Origin: Gammaproteobacteria bacterium
GTDB lineage: Bacteria > Pseudomonadota > Gammaproteobacteria > GCA-001735895
Assembly (NCBI GenBank): GCA_029864185.1
Contig: JAOTTY010000001.1
Span: 1 to 62,246 of the forward strand
DNA: 62,246 bases
Reading direction: 5' to 3'
A program made the translations under genes and the position numbers. Position 1 is the first letter of the stretch. Each line of letters begins with the position of its first letter. Shown piece by piece: positions 7,356-38,827 of the stretch. Under the pieces are notes generated by a model. The model was not told the origin of the DNA and searched no databases. It was given only the letters and a program-made list of their open reading frames with translations.

Positions 7356-8650
7356 ATATTGCAATAATCGGCGCCGGAATTTCCGGACTCACTGCAGCTT
7401 ATTATCTTCGCCGCGGGCACGACATTACGATTTACGAATCGGCCCCCCGTATCGGCGGTCACACCGCGACCGTCGATGTTCGTTACGCAGGACGCGATTA
7501 CGCCATAGACACAGGGTTCATCGTCTACAACGACTGGACGTATCCAAAGTTTATCGAACTGATAGCGGAGCTTGGCGTGGAAACCCGGCCCACCGAGATG
7601 AGTTTCAGCGTGCGCTGCGACGACAACGGGCTGGAGTACGGCGGCAATAACCTGAATACCCTGTTCGCGCAGCGTATCAACCTGATGCGGCCATCGTTTC
7701 ATCGTATGCTGCGGGACATTTTGCGCTTCAACCGCGAAGCGGTCAAAGACCTCGACAGTGGCCGCATCTCCGCGACGACGACGCTGGGTGATTACCTGGC
7801 GGCGAACCGTTACTGCGAGGAGTTCACCTATCGGTACCTGCTACCGATGGGTTGCGCGATCTGGTCGGCGTCGACATCGCGCATGATCGATTTCCCGGTA
7901 CTGTTCTTCACGCGGTTTTTCAAGAATCATGGGCTGCTGAGCGTCAACGACCGGCCGCAGTGGCACGTCATCAAGGGCGGCTCGAGAAGCTACCTCGAGC
8001 CATTGACGCGTGAATTCAGCGACTCGATTTGCGTCAATGCACAAATTGTCTCGGTGCGGAGACGTCCTGGAGGGGTGGAACTGGTTATGGCCAACGGGCA
8101 TACCGCGCAATACGATCAGGTTATCTTCGCCTGCCATAGCGACCAGGCACTCGGATTGCTGGCCGATGCCACGATGGCCGAGCGCGACGCGCTGACGGCG
8201 ATCCCCTACCAGTCGAACGAGGTAGTGCTGCACACGGACGAAAGCCTGTTGCCGCGACGCCGACTTGCCTGGTCGAGCTGGAATTACTGGTTGCGCGAGC
8301 GCTACCAGCAGCGTGCTATCCTGACCTATAACATGAATATCCTGCAGGGCATCGAATCGGATACAAACTTCTGCGTTACGCTAAATGCCACCGAATCGAT
8401 TGCGGCAGACAAGATTATCGAAACTTTCAACTACAGTCACCCGGTGTTCTCCCTGGAGTCGGTCGTAGCTGCCGCGAAAATCGATGATTTCAACGGGCTC
8501 AATCGCACCTGGTTTGCCGGTGCTTACCTCGGCAACGGTTTCCATGAAGACGGCGTGGTCAGCGGACGCCGGGTCGCCGATGCGATCAATCGCCTCGCTC
8601 CGTCGGCGCCCCGGGATAGTCTGGCAGCCGCAGAAACGTCCCATGCATAG
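7352..8650 (+). CDS. FAD/NAD(P)-dependent amine-oxidase-like oxidoreductase
   Basis: Dinucleotide-binding motif IAIIGAGISGLTAAYYL. There is a 4-nt overlap with the SDR stop. Confidence 0.85.
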   Translation: MNIAIIGAGISGLTAAYYLRRGHDITIYESAPRIGGHTATVDVRYAGRDYAIDTGFIVYNDWTYPKFIELIAELGVETRPTEMSFSVRCDDNGLEYGGNNLNTLFAQRINLMRPSFHRMLRDILRFNREAVKDLDSGRISATTTLGDYLAANRYCEEFTYRYLLPMGCAIWSASTSRMIDFPVLFFTRFFKNHGLLSVNDRPQWHVIKGGSRSYLEPLTREFSDSICVNAQIVSVRRRPGGVELVMANGHTAQYDQVIFACHSDQALGLLADATMAERDALTAIPYQSNEVVLHTDESLLPRRRLAWSSWNYWLRERYQQRAILTYNMNILQGIESDTNFCVTLNATESIAADKIIETFNYSHPVFSLESVVAAAKIDDFNGLNRTWFAGAYLGNGFHEDGVVSGRRVADAINRLAPSAPRDSLAAAETSHA

Positions 8651-14857: not shown

Positions 14858-14911
14858 GGGGACAGTTTACTTATATCGCGCAAAATGGATTGAATTAAGT
14901 AAACTGTCCCC
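14858..14911. repeat. palindromic intergenic element, copy A
   Basis: Arms GGGGACAGTTTACTTA (14858-14873) and TAAGTAAACTGTCCCC (14896-14911), with the 22-nt spacer TATCGCGCAAAATGGATTGAAT. Confidence 0.9.
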
Positions 14912-16125: not shown

Positions 16126-16179
16126 GGGGACAGTTTACCCATATCGCAGAAAATGGATTGAACCAAGTAAACTGTCGCC
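16126..16179. repeat. palindromic intergenic element, copy B (degenerate)
   Basis: GGGGACAGTTTACCC...ATATCGCAGAAAATGGATTGAA...CAAGTAAACTGTCGCC. It is collinear with copy A, spacer included, and in the same orientation. Confidence 0.85.
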
Positions 16180-34395: not shown

Positions 34396-34845
34396 ATGAT
34401 TATCAGGGTTCAAAACGAGGATTTCGACAGCGTCGCGGTGCAGCGGGAGCTGGTGACCGGGCGTAGCGATATCGGCGCCATTGCCAGTTTTATCGGTCTG
34501 GTGCGGGACCTCGCAGACGACCCTTTGCTGCAAATGACGCTGCAACACTACCCGGGCATGACCGAAAAGGCGCTCGAGCGGATTGCCGACCTGGCCTGCC
34601 AGCGCTGGCAGGTACTGGACCTGGCGATCATACACCGGGTCGGGGCGCTGCGGCCGGCCGACCAGATCGTGCTCGTCATGGTCGCGAGCGCCCATCGCGG
34701 CGACGCGTTTGCCGCCTGCGAATTCATTATGGATTACCTCAAGAACGAGGCGCCATTCTGGAAAAAGGAAGCCAGTCGCGGAGGCGAAAAATGGGTCGAG
34801 GCGCGAAAAAGCGACCAATCAGCGCAAAAAAAATGGAATAAGTGA
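34396..34845 (+). CDS. moaE: molybdopterin synthase catalytic subunit
   Basis: 149 aa, GAIASFIGLVRD near the N-terminus, adjacent to moeA. Confidence 0.85.
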   Translation: MIIRVQNEDFDSVAVQRELVTGRSDIGAIASFIGLVRDLADDPLLQMTLQHYPGMTEKALERIADLACQRWQVLDLAIIHRVGALRPADQIVLVMVASAHRGDAFAACEFIMDYLKNEAPFWKKEASRGGEKWVEARKSDQSAQKKWNK

Positions 34846-34927
34846 CCGCAACCGACAAAAATTTGACGCTTTATTCATATAATTTTGCGAGAATCGTCAT
34901 TTGAGCTATAAGCTGCGAGCATGAACC

Positions 34928-35221
34928 GTGAATTACATTTTCACAGCTAGACCCATGCATCTCCCGTCCGTGCTGGAGCGGCCGATAACGCGGCCCGTGA
35001 CGTCCGTTTCGGATAGCGCCGCGGGTTTTCGCGACGCCAGCAGGCAGCAACCGTCTACCCGTGTTTACCGGGGAGAATTGCTCGACACGGTGACCGACCG
35101 ATCGTATCGGCCCGAACCCAATCTGCAGATCAGCCCGCAAAACCGGCGCGCGATCAGTACTTATCGAAATACCGCGAATCCGCAGCCGATCATCGGCAGG
35201 ATCCTGAACGGATATATTTGA
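34928..35221 (+). CDS. possible small hypothetical protein
   Basis: A 97-aa ORF (GTG 34928, alternative ATG 34955). Third-codon-position G+C is high like real genes here. No motif recognised. Confidence 0.35.
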   Translation: MNYIFTARPMHLPSVLERPITRPVTSVSDSAAGFRDASRQQPSTRVYRGELLDTVTDRSYRPEPNLQISPQNRRAISTYRNTANPQPIIGRILNGYI

Positions 35222-35228
35222 GATATTC

Positions 35229-35307
35229 GGGGACAGTTTACTTAATTCGGCCTGTCGAATTAAGTAAACTGTCCCCTTTATGGCGCCGAATTAAGTAAAC
35301 TGTCCCC
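35229..35307. repeat. palindromic intergenic element, copy C (one left arm, two right arms)
   Basis: Left arm GGGGACAGTTTACTTAATTCG (35229-35249), loop GCCTGT, then right arm CGAATTAAGTAAACTGTCCCC at 35256-35276 and again at 35287-35307. Confidence 0.92.
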
Positions 35308-35310
35308 TTT

Positions 35311-37485
35311 ATGGACGTATCCCACTTAATCGATCCTCTGAACGAACCTCAGCGCGAAGCGGTGAGCGCCGAACCGGGCCCGATACTGGTGCTCGCCGGC
35401 GCCGGCAGCGGCAAGACGCGGGTATTGACCCATCGCGTCGCCTGGGTTTGCGAAGTCAACGGCCTGTCTCCTTATAGCGTGCTCGCGGTTACCTTTACCA
35501 ACAAGGCGGCCAGCGAGATGCGCTCGCGGGTCGAATCCCTGCTCGGCATATCGGCGGCAGCAATGTGGGTCGGAACTTTTCACGGGCTCACGCATCGCAT
35601 GCTGCGCCTGCACTACGAGGCCGCCGGTCTGCCGCAGGGGTTTCAAATCCTCGACAGCGACGACCAGTTGCGCATGGTCAAGCGCGTCATACGGCAACTC
35701 GACCTCGACGAGGCGCGCTGGCCGCCCAAGCAGGCGCAGTGGTTTATCAATCACAACAAGGATGAAGGCCTGCGCCCGGCGCATATCGATCCCGGTCAGG
35801 ATCCTATCCAGCAGCAAATGCTCGAAATTTACCGGCTCTACCAGGACCTGTGCGACCGCGCCGGGGTCGTCGATTTCGCCGAGTTACTGCTGCGGGTGCT
35901 CGAATTGATCCGTGACAACGACGACATTCGCGAGCACTATCAGCGCCGGTTTCGGCACATCCTGGTCGACGAGTTTCAGGACACCAACGCGATCCAATAC
36001 GCCTGGCTGCGGCTCATGGCGGGCGCCGAAACCCCGGTGTTCGTGGTTGGCGACGATGACCAGTCGATCTACGGCTGGCGCGGCGCGCGCATCGAGAATA
36101 TCCATCATTTCGAAAAAGACTTCGCCGCGACCAGGGTGATCAGGCTGGAGCAGAACTATCGCTCCACCGGCACCATCCTGAAGGCCGCCAACGCGTTGAT
36201 CGACAACAATAATTCGCGTCTCGGCAAGGAATTATGGACGCAGAGCGATGCCGGCGAACCGATCCTGTTCTACTCGGCCTACAACGAGAAAGACGAGGCG
36301 CGTTTCGTCGTCGATCGCATCGAAAGCTGGGTTGAACAGGGGCGTAGCCGCAAAGAAATCGCGGTGCTTTACCGTTCCAACGCGCAGTCGCGCCAGTTTG
36401 AAGAAAGCCTGGTGACGCGTGGCGTGCCCTATCGCGTCTACGGCGGGTTACGCTTTTTCGAGCGCGCCGAGATCAAGGATACGCTCGCCTACCTGCGCAT
36501 GATATCGAGCCCGACCGCGGACAACGCCTTCGAGCGCACGGTCAATCACCCGCCGCGCGGCATCGGGCAAAAAACCATCGACGAAATCCGTAACTATGCG
36601 CGCGAACAATCGGCGTCGCTGTGGACCGCGGCGCGCGAACTGGTGAAATCGCCCGATCGGCTGACCTCGCGCGCGCGCGGCGCGCTGCAGGCATACCTCG
36701 ACCTGGTACAGCGCATGACAGACCAGCTGGCCGAACTGCCGCTCGGCGAGCAGATAAAATCGAGCATCGAAATGAGCGGGCTGGACGCTCATTTCAAGAA
36801 AGACAGCAGCGAAAAAGGCCAGTCTCGAATCGAAAACCTGCAGGAACTGGTCGGTGCCGGCAAGAGCTACGAATACGACGCGGTGATCGAAGAAAGCATG
36901 ACGACGCTCGACGCCTTCCTGGCGCATGCCGCGCTTGAAGCAGGGGAAGGCCAGGCCGACGCCTGGGAAGATTGTGTGCAATTGATGACCATGCATTCGG
37001 TCAAGGGGCTGGAGTTTCCGCTGGTGTTTCTGGTCGGCATGGAGGAGGGACTGTTCCCGCACCAGCGGTCCAGCGAGGAGCCCGGCCGCATGGAGGAAGA
37101 GCGCCGCCTTTGTTATGTCGGAATCACGCGCGCGCGCGAACAGCTGGTGGTAACCAGTGCCGAAGTACGGCGCCTGTTCGGTGGCGAAAGCTATAATATG
37201 CTGTCACGATTCGTGCGCGAAATTCCGCACGAACTGATCCAGGAAATCCGCCCCAGGGCGCAGTTCACGCGTCCCGGGTTGCAGGCGACGCCCGCGGTGC
37301 ACCGCGAGCTGGCCGAGCAGGATACGGGCCTCTTCGTCGGACAGCGCGTCAACCATGCGCGCTTCGGCGACGGGGTCGTGCTGAATCTCGAGGGGCAGGG
37401 ATCGCAGTCGCGGGTCCAGGTCAATTTCGAAGCCGCCGGCAGCAAATGGCTGATCGCGAGCATGGCAAATCTGCAGCCCGCCTGA
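35311..37485 (+). CDS. uvrD: DNA helicase II
   Basis: MDVSHLIDPLNEPQREAV aligns with the E. coli UvrD N-terminus. AGAGSGKTRVL and DEFQDTN. Confidence 0.95.
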   Translation: MDVSHLIDPLNEPQREAVSAEPGPILVLAGAGSGKTRVLTHRVAWVCEVNGLSPYSVLAVTFTNKAASEMRSRVESLLGISAAAMWVGTFHGLTHRMLRLHYEAAGLPQGFQILDSDDQLRMVKRVIRQLDLDEARWPPKQAQWFINHNKDEGLRPAHIDPGQDPIQQQMLEIYRLYQDLCDRAGVVDFAELLLRVLELIRDNDDIREHYQRRFRHILVDEFQDTNAIQYAWLRLMAGAETPVFVVGDDDQSIYGWRGARIENIHHFEKDFAATRVIRLEQNYRSTGTILKAANALIDNNNSRLGKELWTQSDAGEPILFYSAYNEKDEARFVVDRIESWVEQGRSRKEIAVLYRSNAQSRQFEESLVTRGVPYRVYGGLRFFERAEIKDTLAYLRMISSPTADNAFERTVNHPPRGIGQKTIDEIRNYAREQSASLWTAARELVKSPDRLTSRARGALQAYLDLVQRMTDQLAELPLGEQIKSSIEMSGLDAHFKKDSSEKGQSRIENLQELVGAGKSYEYDAVIEESMTTLDAFLAHAALEAGEGQADAWEDCVQLMTMHSVKGLEFPLVFLVGMEEGLFPHQRSSEEPGRMEEERRLCYVGITRAREQLVVTSAEVRRLFGGESYNMLSRFVREIPHELIQEIRPRAQFTRPGLQATPAVHRELAEQDTGLFVGQRVNHARFGDGVVLNLEGQGSQSRVQVNFEAAGSKWLIASMANLQPA

Positions 37486-38740: not shown

Positions 38741-38827
38741 AATTCCGGGGACACATTACTTAACTTAATTCGCGATTTAATCAGGACTGGTCGAAGTTCC
38801 TGAATTAAGTAATGTGTCCCCGGAATT
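38741..38827. repeat. palindromic intergenic element, copy D (sequence variant)
   Basis: 23-bp perfect inverted arms AATTCCGGGGACACATTACTTAA (38741-38763) and TTAAGTAATGTGTCCCCGGAATT (38805-38827), with a 41-nt spacer. Confidence 0.9.

Follow-up and report, generated by a model that had tools for sequence, protein, structure and literature searches.

Judging by its sequence, the perfect hairpin that abuts the start codon of uvrD in this gammaproteobacterial genome is one locus of a REP/REPIN-type family of elements, an assignment made because about 140 arms, almost all of them extragenic, were found together with a RAYT-type gene that is flanked by the same arms, both here and in congeners. 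Very probably, the copy at uvrD replaced the promoter region of the gene and then gained 31 nt by local duplication, as an accident of repeat dynamics.

The window, that is, the whole stretch of 62,246 nt analysed, contains every feature that a sequence-only reading had described at this locus, namely a 21-bp perfect hairpin with a duplicated right arm (Table 1). The left arm (35229-35249, GGGGACAGTTTACTTAATTCG) can indeed pair with either right arm, over 21 nt with the first and 23 nt with the second, and the tandem repeat said to include the initiation codon consists of exact 28-nt copies (CGAATTAAGTAAACTGTCCCCTTTATGG) at 35256-35283 and 35287-35314, with a spacing of 31. The upstream ATG at 35280 is present, and opens the MAPN-stop frame that had been reported. 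The element begins 7 nt after the stop of a small gene of 97 aa, and 3 nt separate the end of right arm 2 from the uvrD ATG. With 6 matches observed and 0 expected from dinucleotide-preserving shuffling of the window, chance is ruled out. The absence of a purine-rich Shine-Dalgarno sequence before uvrD was also borne out; congeners without the element have no clear one either, so that this absence is not peculiar to the element. Likewise, no CTGT-N8-ACAG box of the LexA type occurs between moaE and uvrD (34846 to 35310, allowing up to one mismatch), in agreement with the earlier observation.

Table 1. Features of the uvrD locus, and further copies of the repeat family, in the 62,246-nt window.
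Feature	Position	Strand	Remarks
Family copy	14858..14911	.	22-nt-spacer subtype
Family copy	16126..16179	.	22-nt-spacer subtype, diverged core
Small gene, 97 aa, GTG start	34928..35221	+	Conserved: tblastn in 10 congeners
ATATTC, outer flank of left arm	35223..35228	+	Matches family flank consensus AAWTNC
Left arm, REP-type element	35229..35251	+	35229-35249, 21 nt with right arm 1; 23 nt with right arm 2
Loop GCCTGT	35250-35255		Between left arm and right arm 1
31-nt extra unit	35252..35282	+	Spans CTGT (rest of the loop), right arm 1, TTT and a copied ATG; missing in G001 and metagenome contig L090
Right arm 1	35256..35276	-	Perfect 21-bp hairpin with left arm, 6-nt loop
Decoy start and 4-codon mini-ORF	35280..35294	+	ATG GCG CCG AAT TAA (MAPN-stop); read from sequence
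Right arm 2	35285..35307 (35287-35307 as 21-nt arm)	-	23 bp with left arm, 33-nt loop
TTTATGG	35308..35314	+	Off outer-flank consensus (outward CCATAAA vs AAWTNC); ATGG is ancestral uvrD start plus first base of codon 2
uvrD, UvrD/PcrA-type helicase, 724 aa	35311..37485	+	Pfam PF00580, PF13361, PF21196
Variant family copy	38747..38821	.	Core GGGGACACATTACTTA, both arms

The core GGGGACAGTTTACTTA occurs about 140 times in the 4.35-Mb genome, in 81 clusters (loci), and the 21-mer arm has 119 matches at up to 3 mismatches, compared with 0 for the reversed control. The family arm can be written as AAWTNC-GGGGACAGTTTACTTAWTTCG, and an inverted pair of arms forms a hairpin of about 21-24 bp. Loops of 0-10 nt characterise the commonest spacer subtype; elsewhere in the family the spacer measures about 22 nt or about 40-45 nt. 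With genes called crudely as longest ORFs (90% coding), nearly every cluster falls outside an ORF and many are 0-25 nt past a stop codon; the few overlaps concern doubtful ORF ends. The inner stem is free to vary, with compensating changes on the partner arm. A single arm gave no sign of being a palindrome of its own, as no covariation was found between its outer flank and its inner end; on these grounds the doublet was rejected as a classical REPIN of palindromic REPs, in which single arms form small hairpins. No GTAG or CGTC terminal tetranucleotide is present, the outer positions being AAWTNC followed by GGGG.

A Y1_Tnp protein of 216 aa is encoded at 8189-8836 of contig C35 of this genome (G000), with a Pfam score of 47.8 bits (cut-off 23), and its gene is flanked by inverted arms at 8085(+), 8114(+) and 8845(-). 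The protein aligns to E. coli TnpA_REP (PDB 4er8, E=2.8e-5) with HVH opposite HMH and the two Tyr residues in register; its NCBIfam REP_Tyr_transpos score, 59.3 bits, falls under the equivalog cut-off of 80. Orthologous RAYTs with 53-59% identity were found in 10 congeners, each flanked by inverted, lineage-specific variants of the arm, and a contig scan with the C35 protein returned only distant matches (45-66% identity) from other phyla. By analogy with known REP-RAYT systems, the mobility and maintenance of the family may be attributed to this single RAYT-type Y1/HUH transposase. Arm copy number ranges from 0 to 119 across congeners, and this genome and its closest relative, G001, have counts among the highest in the genus. 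No close RAYT orthologue was found in G001, which carries 62 arms yet is only 81% complete.

The comparison of related strains suggested earlier places the repeat at the ATG only in sequences of the G000/G001 type, with the duplication absent from G001. In the 18 of 18 congeners that have no repeat abutting the ATG, an extended -10 motif, TGnTAcAAT, lies 35-46 nt upstream of uvrD; the motif is missing in G000, in G001 and in a metagenome contig, L090. In both G001 and L090, a single perfect palindrome of 48 nt leads directly into TCT-ATG. Pairwise alignment of G000 with G001 shows a 31-nt insertion in G000, and right arm 2 is the orthologue of the single right arm in G001. At this site the arm is 100% identical between the two genomes, compared with about 88% for the flanks. 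A metagenome scan for the junction between the repeat and uvrD yielded L090 as its one contig, of the G001 type. No exact match of the UvrD protein was found in other assemblies, and the 31-nt duplication is known from one metagenome-type assembly only. All relatives keep the ATGGAYGT start, which encodes the N-terminus MDVSH. In G035, an independent '+--' copy lies 4 nt after the stop of the same small gene with the TGGTACAAT block retained, a case that, as far as sequence can tell, shows the usual outcome of insertion in the spacer between the small gene and uvrD. The sequence-only reading had overlooked the weightier point that the element stands in place of the conserved, presumed promoter/5'UTR block that uvrD has in other species of the genus.

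The following order of events is proposed. In the common ancestor of G000 and G001, an element would have been placed 7 nt past the stop of the small gene, a position favoured by the family. The ATATTC on its left is probably a pre-existing target sequence, since the relatives G002 and G014, whose site is empty, have a similar TATTC after the stop codon. A stretch of about 70 nt separating the element from the uvrD ATG would then have been lost, including the TGnTAcAAT extended -10 and the short 5'UTR of the other congeners; presumably this block had served as the promoter of uvrD. Subsequently, in the G000 lineage, a local tandem duplication of 31 nt would have copied the right arm, TTT and ATG(G), probably through slipped-strand or hairpin-promoted template switching, which left an additional right arm and, with the decoy ATG, a mini-ORF of 4 codons. 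Sequence comparison indicates that the 31 nt extra in G000 are best read as such an in-situ duplication, because the duplicated TTTATGG departs from the AAWTNC consensus and therefore contains uvrD sequence and not element sequence. In the first copy, 3 of the 4 loop positions deviate from what an exact tandem duplication would give (CTGT vs GCGC); hence, either the duplication took more than one simple step or the loop was altered later. Alternatively, the direction of the change could be the opposite, with deletion of one unit in G001.

With its own promoter presumably lost, uvrD would now be transcribed by read-through from the small gene. The sequence makes this gene the likely source, and the only support for this role is a conserved TATAAT upstream of it; the 97-aa product has no Pfam or NCBIfam match. 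A simple scan found no sigma-70-like promoter between moaE and uvrD, and no rho-independent terminator (a G+C-rich stem with at least 5 T in 8) was found in 34700-35450, where only TTT follows the stem. A promoter within the element was considered and discarded: for the -10-like TAAACT of the right arm, no suitable -35 or TG extension was seen at any spacing checked by eye, and the promoter scan was negative. The hairpin or hairpins in a read-through transcript might reduce the translation of uvrD or tie it to the conformer adopted, which would be a by-product rather than evolved control. Effects on uvrD expression through read-through transcription, two near-isoenergetic hairpins and a decoy ATG are plausible on sequence grounds.

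The first account had left two possibilities, an accident of element insertion or a translational control or attenuation device. The former is favoured by our results: the repeat is dispersed and associated with a RAYT, it is absent from the uvrD ATG in 18 of 18 congeners other than the closest relative, and G001 is without the duplication. The latter finds nothing specific to uvrD, no conservation with the gene and no terminator- or promoter-like signal. In its fuller form, this alternative proposes a dedicated post-transcriptional control of uvrD, in which the left arm switches between the two right arms. Pairing with arm 1 would leave the start free with an open leader of 34 nt, and pairing with arm 2 would put a 23-bp stem only 3 nt away from the start; the balance would possibly be set by ribosomes translating the MAPN mini-ORF, and UvrD would be tuned by temperature, translation status or a helicase. 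The alternative pairing of the left arm is physically sound, and the conformers are near in energy (-35.5 kcal/mol with arm 1 and -39.4 kcal/mol with arm 2). The minimum free energy fold shifts with context, from pairing with arm 2 in 220 nt to pairing with arm 1 in 151 nt, and the hairpin is probably in the mRNA, given that uvrD's own promoter appears to be gone. For positions -20 to -1, the average probability of being unpaired is about 0.10-0.12 in single-hairpin versions and increases to 0.20 when the duplication is present. The idea that the duplication thereby relieves the start codon thermodynamically was dismissed, the change at equilibrium being small (0.20 vs about 0.11 unpaired), and it is retained only for the low-probability variant described below. 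Against such control stand the presence of the same element beside unrelated genes at 80 other loci, the lack of the duplication in G001 and in the sole metagenome contig with the junction, and the occurrence of tandem arms at many loci whatever gene adjoins. A gene-specific 5'UTR riboregulator should be conserved with uvrD across orthologues; the element is not at uvrD in 18 congeners, and an Rfam search gave nothing above any gathering score. The perfect stem drew Rfam hits from eukaryotic miRNA hairpin models, all of them sub-threshold, and these were set aside as meaningless. We therefore regard a dedicated control device as improbable.

The same low credence is given to a variant in which the 31-nt duplication was selected after loss of the promoter and leader, producing a REP-derived two-state leader that sets UvrD levels. 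If so, co-transcriptional pairing of the left arm with the proximal right arm would free the real start, and the MAPN mini-ORF would be part of the switch. A selfish palindrome would then have been caught in the middle of recruitment, or of repair, into a translational switch for a DNA-repair helicase. In E. coli uvrD mutants, low UvrD raises slippage and precise excision at repeats and palindromes; hence, a changed UvrD level could in turn affect how the repeat family itself behaves.

Somewhat less probable again is that the 31-nt duplication is an assembly artefact and that the real sequence has a single hairpin, as in G001. The genome is in 439 contigs, many of which end in copies of the same repeat, and no second assembly with the duplication was found. 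However, the 31-nt tandem unit is far below read length and lies 35 kb inside a 62-kb contig, and the first-unit loop, GCCTGT, is unlike that of G001, which a collapse or expansion error would not produce. Moreover, comparable tandem arms in the same orientation, repeated every 23-37 nt, are found at 15 other loci of the 81, and also in the uvrD spacer of G035; several of these loci include flanking sequence (C415, 31 nt at period 32; C171, 39 nt at period 37).

The arms might instead serve as operators for a DNA-binding regulator, forming a palindromic box shared across a regulon in which uvrD is one target, as their identity at uvrD in G000 and G001 beside diverged flanks would allow. The copies are found mainly just after stops, between convergent or co-directional genes and not at promoters, the inner stem varies freely with compensation, the arms flank a Y1 transposase gene here and in 10 other genomes, and copy number goes from 0 to 119 among congeners, all of which makes this reading very unlikely. 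Equally hard to credit is that the element is a MITE derived from a classical (DDE) insertion sequence and that TTTATGG is its target-site duplication: the terminal inverted repeats do begin with GGGG and TTTATGG does occur twice, but it follows each right arm whereas the left flank is GATATTC, so that it does not flank the element, the '+...-' clusters have no consistent flanking direct repeat, and the arm-flanked gene encodes a Y1 and not a DDE transposase.

Taken together, a dispersed repeat copy with a later local duplication is the reading that we prefer, and it carries a lesson for annotation: a conspicuous hairpin that abuts a start codon need not be a regulator specific to that gene, and can instead belong to a dispersed REP-type repeat. 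Together, the 216-aa Y1 protein and the arm AAWTNC-GGGGACAGTTTACTTAWTTCG would make up a REP-RAYT pair not described before, from a gammaproteobacterial genus that is large and for the most part uncultured. At uvrD, a REP copy stands in place of a presumed promoter/leader block that is otherwise invariant in the genus, ahead of a core repair gene. The literature on REPs has dealt mostly with effects on the upstream gene, at mRNA 3' ends. The three natural states seen here, an empty site, a single perfect palindrome and a palindrome with duplicated arm and ATG, offer an allelic series for effects on the downstream gene.

Several known systems resemble this family. The REP/BIME elements of E. 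coli and their TnpA_REP (PMC3333891, PMC3479197, PMC8266576) share with it high-copy extragenic palindromes, clusters of direct and inverted arms, and a repeat-flanked Y1/HUH gene in which the HUH motif and Tyr are aligned (4er8). In contrast to E. coli REPs, the arm is unrelated in sequence, A+T-rich in a genome of 58.6% G+C and without a GTAG head; a single arm forms no hairpin, and it takes a pair of arms to build one, with a perfectly matched stem of 21-24 bp. Compared with TnpA_REP, the RAYT is longer (216 vs 165 aa), and it scores below the NCBIfam equivalog cut-off. REPINs and RAYTs of P. fluorescens SBW25 (PMC3116915, PMC3337134, PMC5581495) likewise have two inverted units that form one long hairpin, apparently the evolving unit, and a RAYT flanked by units; there too, repeat and RAYT co-diverge and orthologous copies persist between species. 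Unlike in SBW25, the spacer of the commonest subtype is much shorter (loops of 0-10 nt), with the doublet as the candidate mobile unit. The superfamilies tagged by GTAG or CGTC (PMC3733652) are also small, high-copy palindromic repeats that are often linked to a RAYT, but their defining tetranucleotide is missing here, where AAWTNC-GGGG bounds the arms. Finally, as in IS200/IS605 (PMC6006769), a short motif (AAWTNC) lies just outside the hairpin, a similar motif is found at the empty site of relatives, and there is no target-site duplication; the present element differs in having no transposase and in that both ends are the same sequence inverted.

The sequence-only reading had described, at the start of uvrD, a hairpin with its loop and two right arms, and a 28-nt direct repeat that includes the uvrD ATG; all of these are present in the sequence, as are the MAPN-stop mini-ORF opened by the upstream ATG (35280) and the ability of the left arm to pair with either right arm, over 23 nt with right arm 2 and two fewer with right arm 1. 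The second ATG is the uvrD start, the 5′ end of the gene being ATGGAYGT (encoding MDVSH) in all relatives, and the protein that begins there contains the UvrD helicase domains. No LexA-type box was found near uvrD, in line with that reading. The lack of a Shine-Dalgarno sequence before the gene was also borne out, but it is common to the element-free leaders of congeners, so it is not specific to the element. Codons 5–8 of uvrD (CACTTAATCGA, 35323–35333) resemble the arm segment ACTTAATTCG and pair with right arm 2 in predicted RNA folds; this likeness looks coincidental, because these codons are ancestral and present in congeners without the element.

Shuffled sequences gave an expectation of zero arm-type matches in the window. 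With up to three mismatches, the 21-mer arm has 119 matches in the 4.35-Mb assembly of this genome (G000) and the reversed control pattern none, and arm counts range from 0 to 119 across 41 genomes of the genus. The 16-nt core GGGGACAGTTTACTTA (up to two mismatches) has 140 matches in 81 clusters, among them 33 simple convergent pairs, 32 solo arms and 15 clusters with same-orientation tandem arms. Almost every cluster lies outside genes as judged by crude ORF calls, and many begin 0–25 nt past a stop codon. In a tight subtype of 22 pairs, with loops of 0–10 nt, the stem is prolonged inward by variable, mutually complementary bases (attcg/cgaat, attcc/ggaat, tatcg/cgata, attgc/gcaat); in further subtypes the spacer measures about 22 nt or 40–45 nt. 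Pairs of the ~22-nt-spacer subtype, found alongside the fully palindromic and the longer-spaced ones, are asymmetric at their inner ends (TATCG ... TTGAAT), and their spacer adds nothing to the stem. Outside the GGGG of the arm there is a strong AAWTNC consensus, in a genome of 58.6% G+C. Single arms form no hairpin of their own, no target-site duplication was seen around the copies, and Rfam gave no meaningful match for the uvrD-site hairpin. Many G000 contigs have a copy no more than about 100 nt from an end; the family is therefore a major cause of the break-up of the assembly into 439 contigs, and the actual copy number is probably higher than that counted.

Three Y1_Tnp (PF01797) matches were found in G000. 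The candidate REP-associated Y1/HUH transposase (RAYT) on contig C35 clears the Pfam cut-off, falls under the NCBIfam equivalog cut-off for REP-associated tyrosine transposases, and aligns with E. coli TnpA_REP (PDB 4er8) with the HUH motif and tyrosine in register. Its orthologues in ten congeners (53–59% identity) each lie between inverted copies of their own arm variant, e.g. GGGGACAGTATACCTA, GGTGACAGTTAACTTA and GGGGACAGTTTACTTT. The closest relative, G001, has 62 arm cores; no close orthologue was found in its assembly, which is missing 19% (best match, 30% identity), so that either the RAYT lies in the missing part or the repeats persist without it. Other Y1_Tnp-like genes or fragments in G000 are 32–48% identical to the C35 RAYT, and congeners have up to 11 such matches per genome. 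Several RAYT lineages seem to coexist in the genus, and each may have a repeat family of its own.

Coordinates of the features (window positions unless a G000 contig, C, is named)
Feature	Position	Remarks
Left arm	35229-35249	
Hairpin loop	between left arm and right arm 1	GCCTGT
Right arm 1	35256-35276	
Right arm 2	35287-35307	
Exact 28-nt direct repeat	35256-35283, 35287-35314	includes TTTATGG; period 31
uvrD start	35311	second ATG; relatives' N-terminus, UvrD helicase domains
Small upstream gene	34928-35221 (+)	97 aa; conserved across genus; precedes uvrD in at least 10 congeners
C35 RAYT	C35 8189-8836	216-aa ORF; between arms 8085(+), 8114(+) and 8845(-)
Other Y1_Tnp-like genes/fragments	C60:5630-6055, C305:3596-4066, C148:9302-9649	
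Three-arm arrays	C436:3321-3401, C404:15595-15702, C199:4606-4711, C296:717-805, C47:641-756, C415:375-453	
~22-nt-spacer copies, window	14858-14911, 16126-16179	
~22-nt-spacer copies, G000	C114:7020, C129:525, C240:3193 and 3688, C296:752, C329:765, C436:3321	
Contigs beginning/ending near a copy		examples: C9, C283, C287, C405, C418, C161, C306, C314, C333, C356, C410

Comparison of the moaE-uvrD region with relatives, a check named in the sequence-only reading, revealed three natural states of the site, which are available for experiment. In 18 of 18 congeners in which no repeat adjoins the uvrD ATG, TGnTAcAAT begins 35–46 nt before it; this extended −10 by sequence belongs to a conserved ~50-nt block, which is wholly missing before uvrD in G000, G001 and the metagenome contig L090. 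In these three the element starts 7 nt past the stop of the small upstream gene and ends 3 nt short of the ATG. The left flank, (GA)TATTC, equals what follows this stop codon in congeners G002 and G014, where the site is empty, and it agrees with AAWTNC; the right flank, CCATAAA read outward, departs from that consensus. We read this as insertion just past the stop, after which the right flank would have been lost together with about 70 nt of sequence reaching to the ATG. An independent three-arm copy in congener G035, 4 nt past the same stop with TGGTACAAT and the leader kept downstream, shows the ordinary outcome of insertion in this spacer. G000 and G001 are 97% identical over the N-terminal 230 aa of UvrD, and 94% in uvrD DNA against about 88% in its flanks. 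The arms (35229–35307) are 100% identical to those of the G001 locus (L035) and L090, the small gene and spacers only about 88%; conservation or homogenisation of the repeat thus far exceeds that of the neighbouring sequence.

G001 and L090 have a single 48-nt perfect palindrome (GGGGACAGTTTACTTAATTCGGCG/CGCCGAATTAAGTAAACTGTCCCC) followed by TCT-ATGG, and G000 is longer than G001 by 31 nt (35252–35282). The extra arm appears to have formed in place and not through a new insertion, since the repeated 28 nt hold the ATGG of uvrD and a flank off the family consensus. Both G000 copies are identical, with TTT where G001 reads TCT, which tips the balance mildly towards a recent duplication on the G000 branch and away from a deletion in G001. 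The event does not seem a clean single step, as three of four loop positions are different in the first unit. Tandem arms with periods of 23–37 nt occur at 15 other loci, several including flank; the family thus duplicates its arms habitually, with no particular tie to uvrD. The suggestion of a control device specific to uvrD finds no support, and the alternative of an accident of insertion is supported. Where a three-arm array separates the end of one gene from the beginning of the next, the doubled arm usually lies towards the beginning of the downstream gene (by crude gene calls, in 5 of the 7 cases that could be determined, uvrD among them), likewise in the G035 copy (L094). This bias, seen in a small sample, may stem from a duplication mechanism that is asymmetric with respect to strand or replication.

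The small upstream gene, which has no Pfam or NCBIfam match, starts with GTG/TTG (MNYI...), carries the motifs YRGELLD and NLQI-PQNRRAI-TY, and ends in GRILNGYI. Before it, a TATAAT is conserved (34878–34883, within 34846–34927), and TAAGCTGCGAGCATGAWCC is a nucleotide-conserved stretch immediately 5′ of its start codon. The −10 block is lost, no sigma-70-like site or terminator was found in the moaE-uvrD interval, and the stem is followed only by TTT; transcription of uvrD therefore probably comes from read-through out of the small gene, which would place the hairpin inside the uvrD mRNA. The conformer with right arm 1 is predicted at −35.5 kcal/mol, leaving 34 nt unpaired before the ATG, and that with right arm 2 at −39.4 kcal/mol, leaving 3 nt between a 23-bp stem and the ATG; which has minimum free energy varies with the sequence context folded. 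Predicted unpaired probability from −20 to −1 is 0.61 in the G002 empty-site leader, 0.10 in G001 and 0.20 in G000. It is plausible that the hairpin depresses UvrD synthesis, that the duplication gives partial relief, and that the mini-ORF interferes with or couples to uvrD translation. What is noteworthy is that the repeat took the place of the probable promoter and the leader, conserved throughout the genus, of a core repair gene.

To our knowledge, no REP/REPIN-RAYT system had been described in the lineage of G000. Dispersed repeats together with an arm-flanked Y1 gene are the signature of REP-RAYT or REPIN-RAYT systems (PMC2817692, PMC3116915, PMC3333891, PMC5581495). Unlike the best-known REP families, that of G000 is without the GTAG/CGTC head (PMC3733652) and its single arms are non-palindromic. 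The element at uvrD belongs to a REP/REPIN-type family that comes with a candidate RAYT of its own, and systems of this kind are already known.
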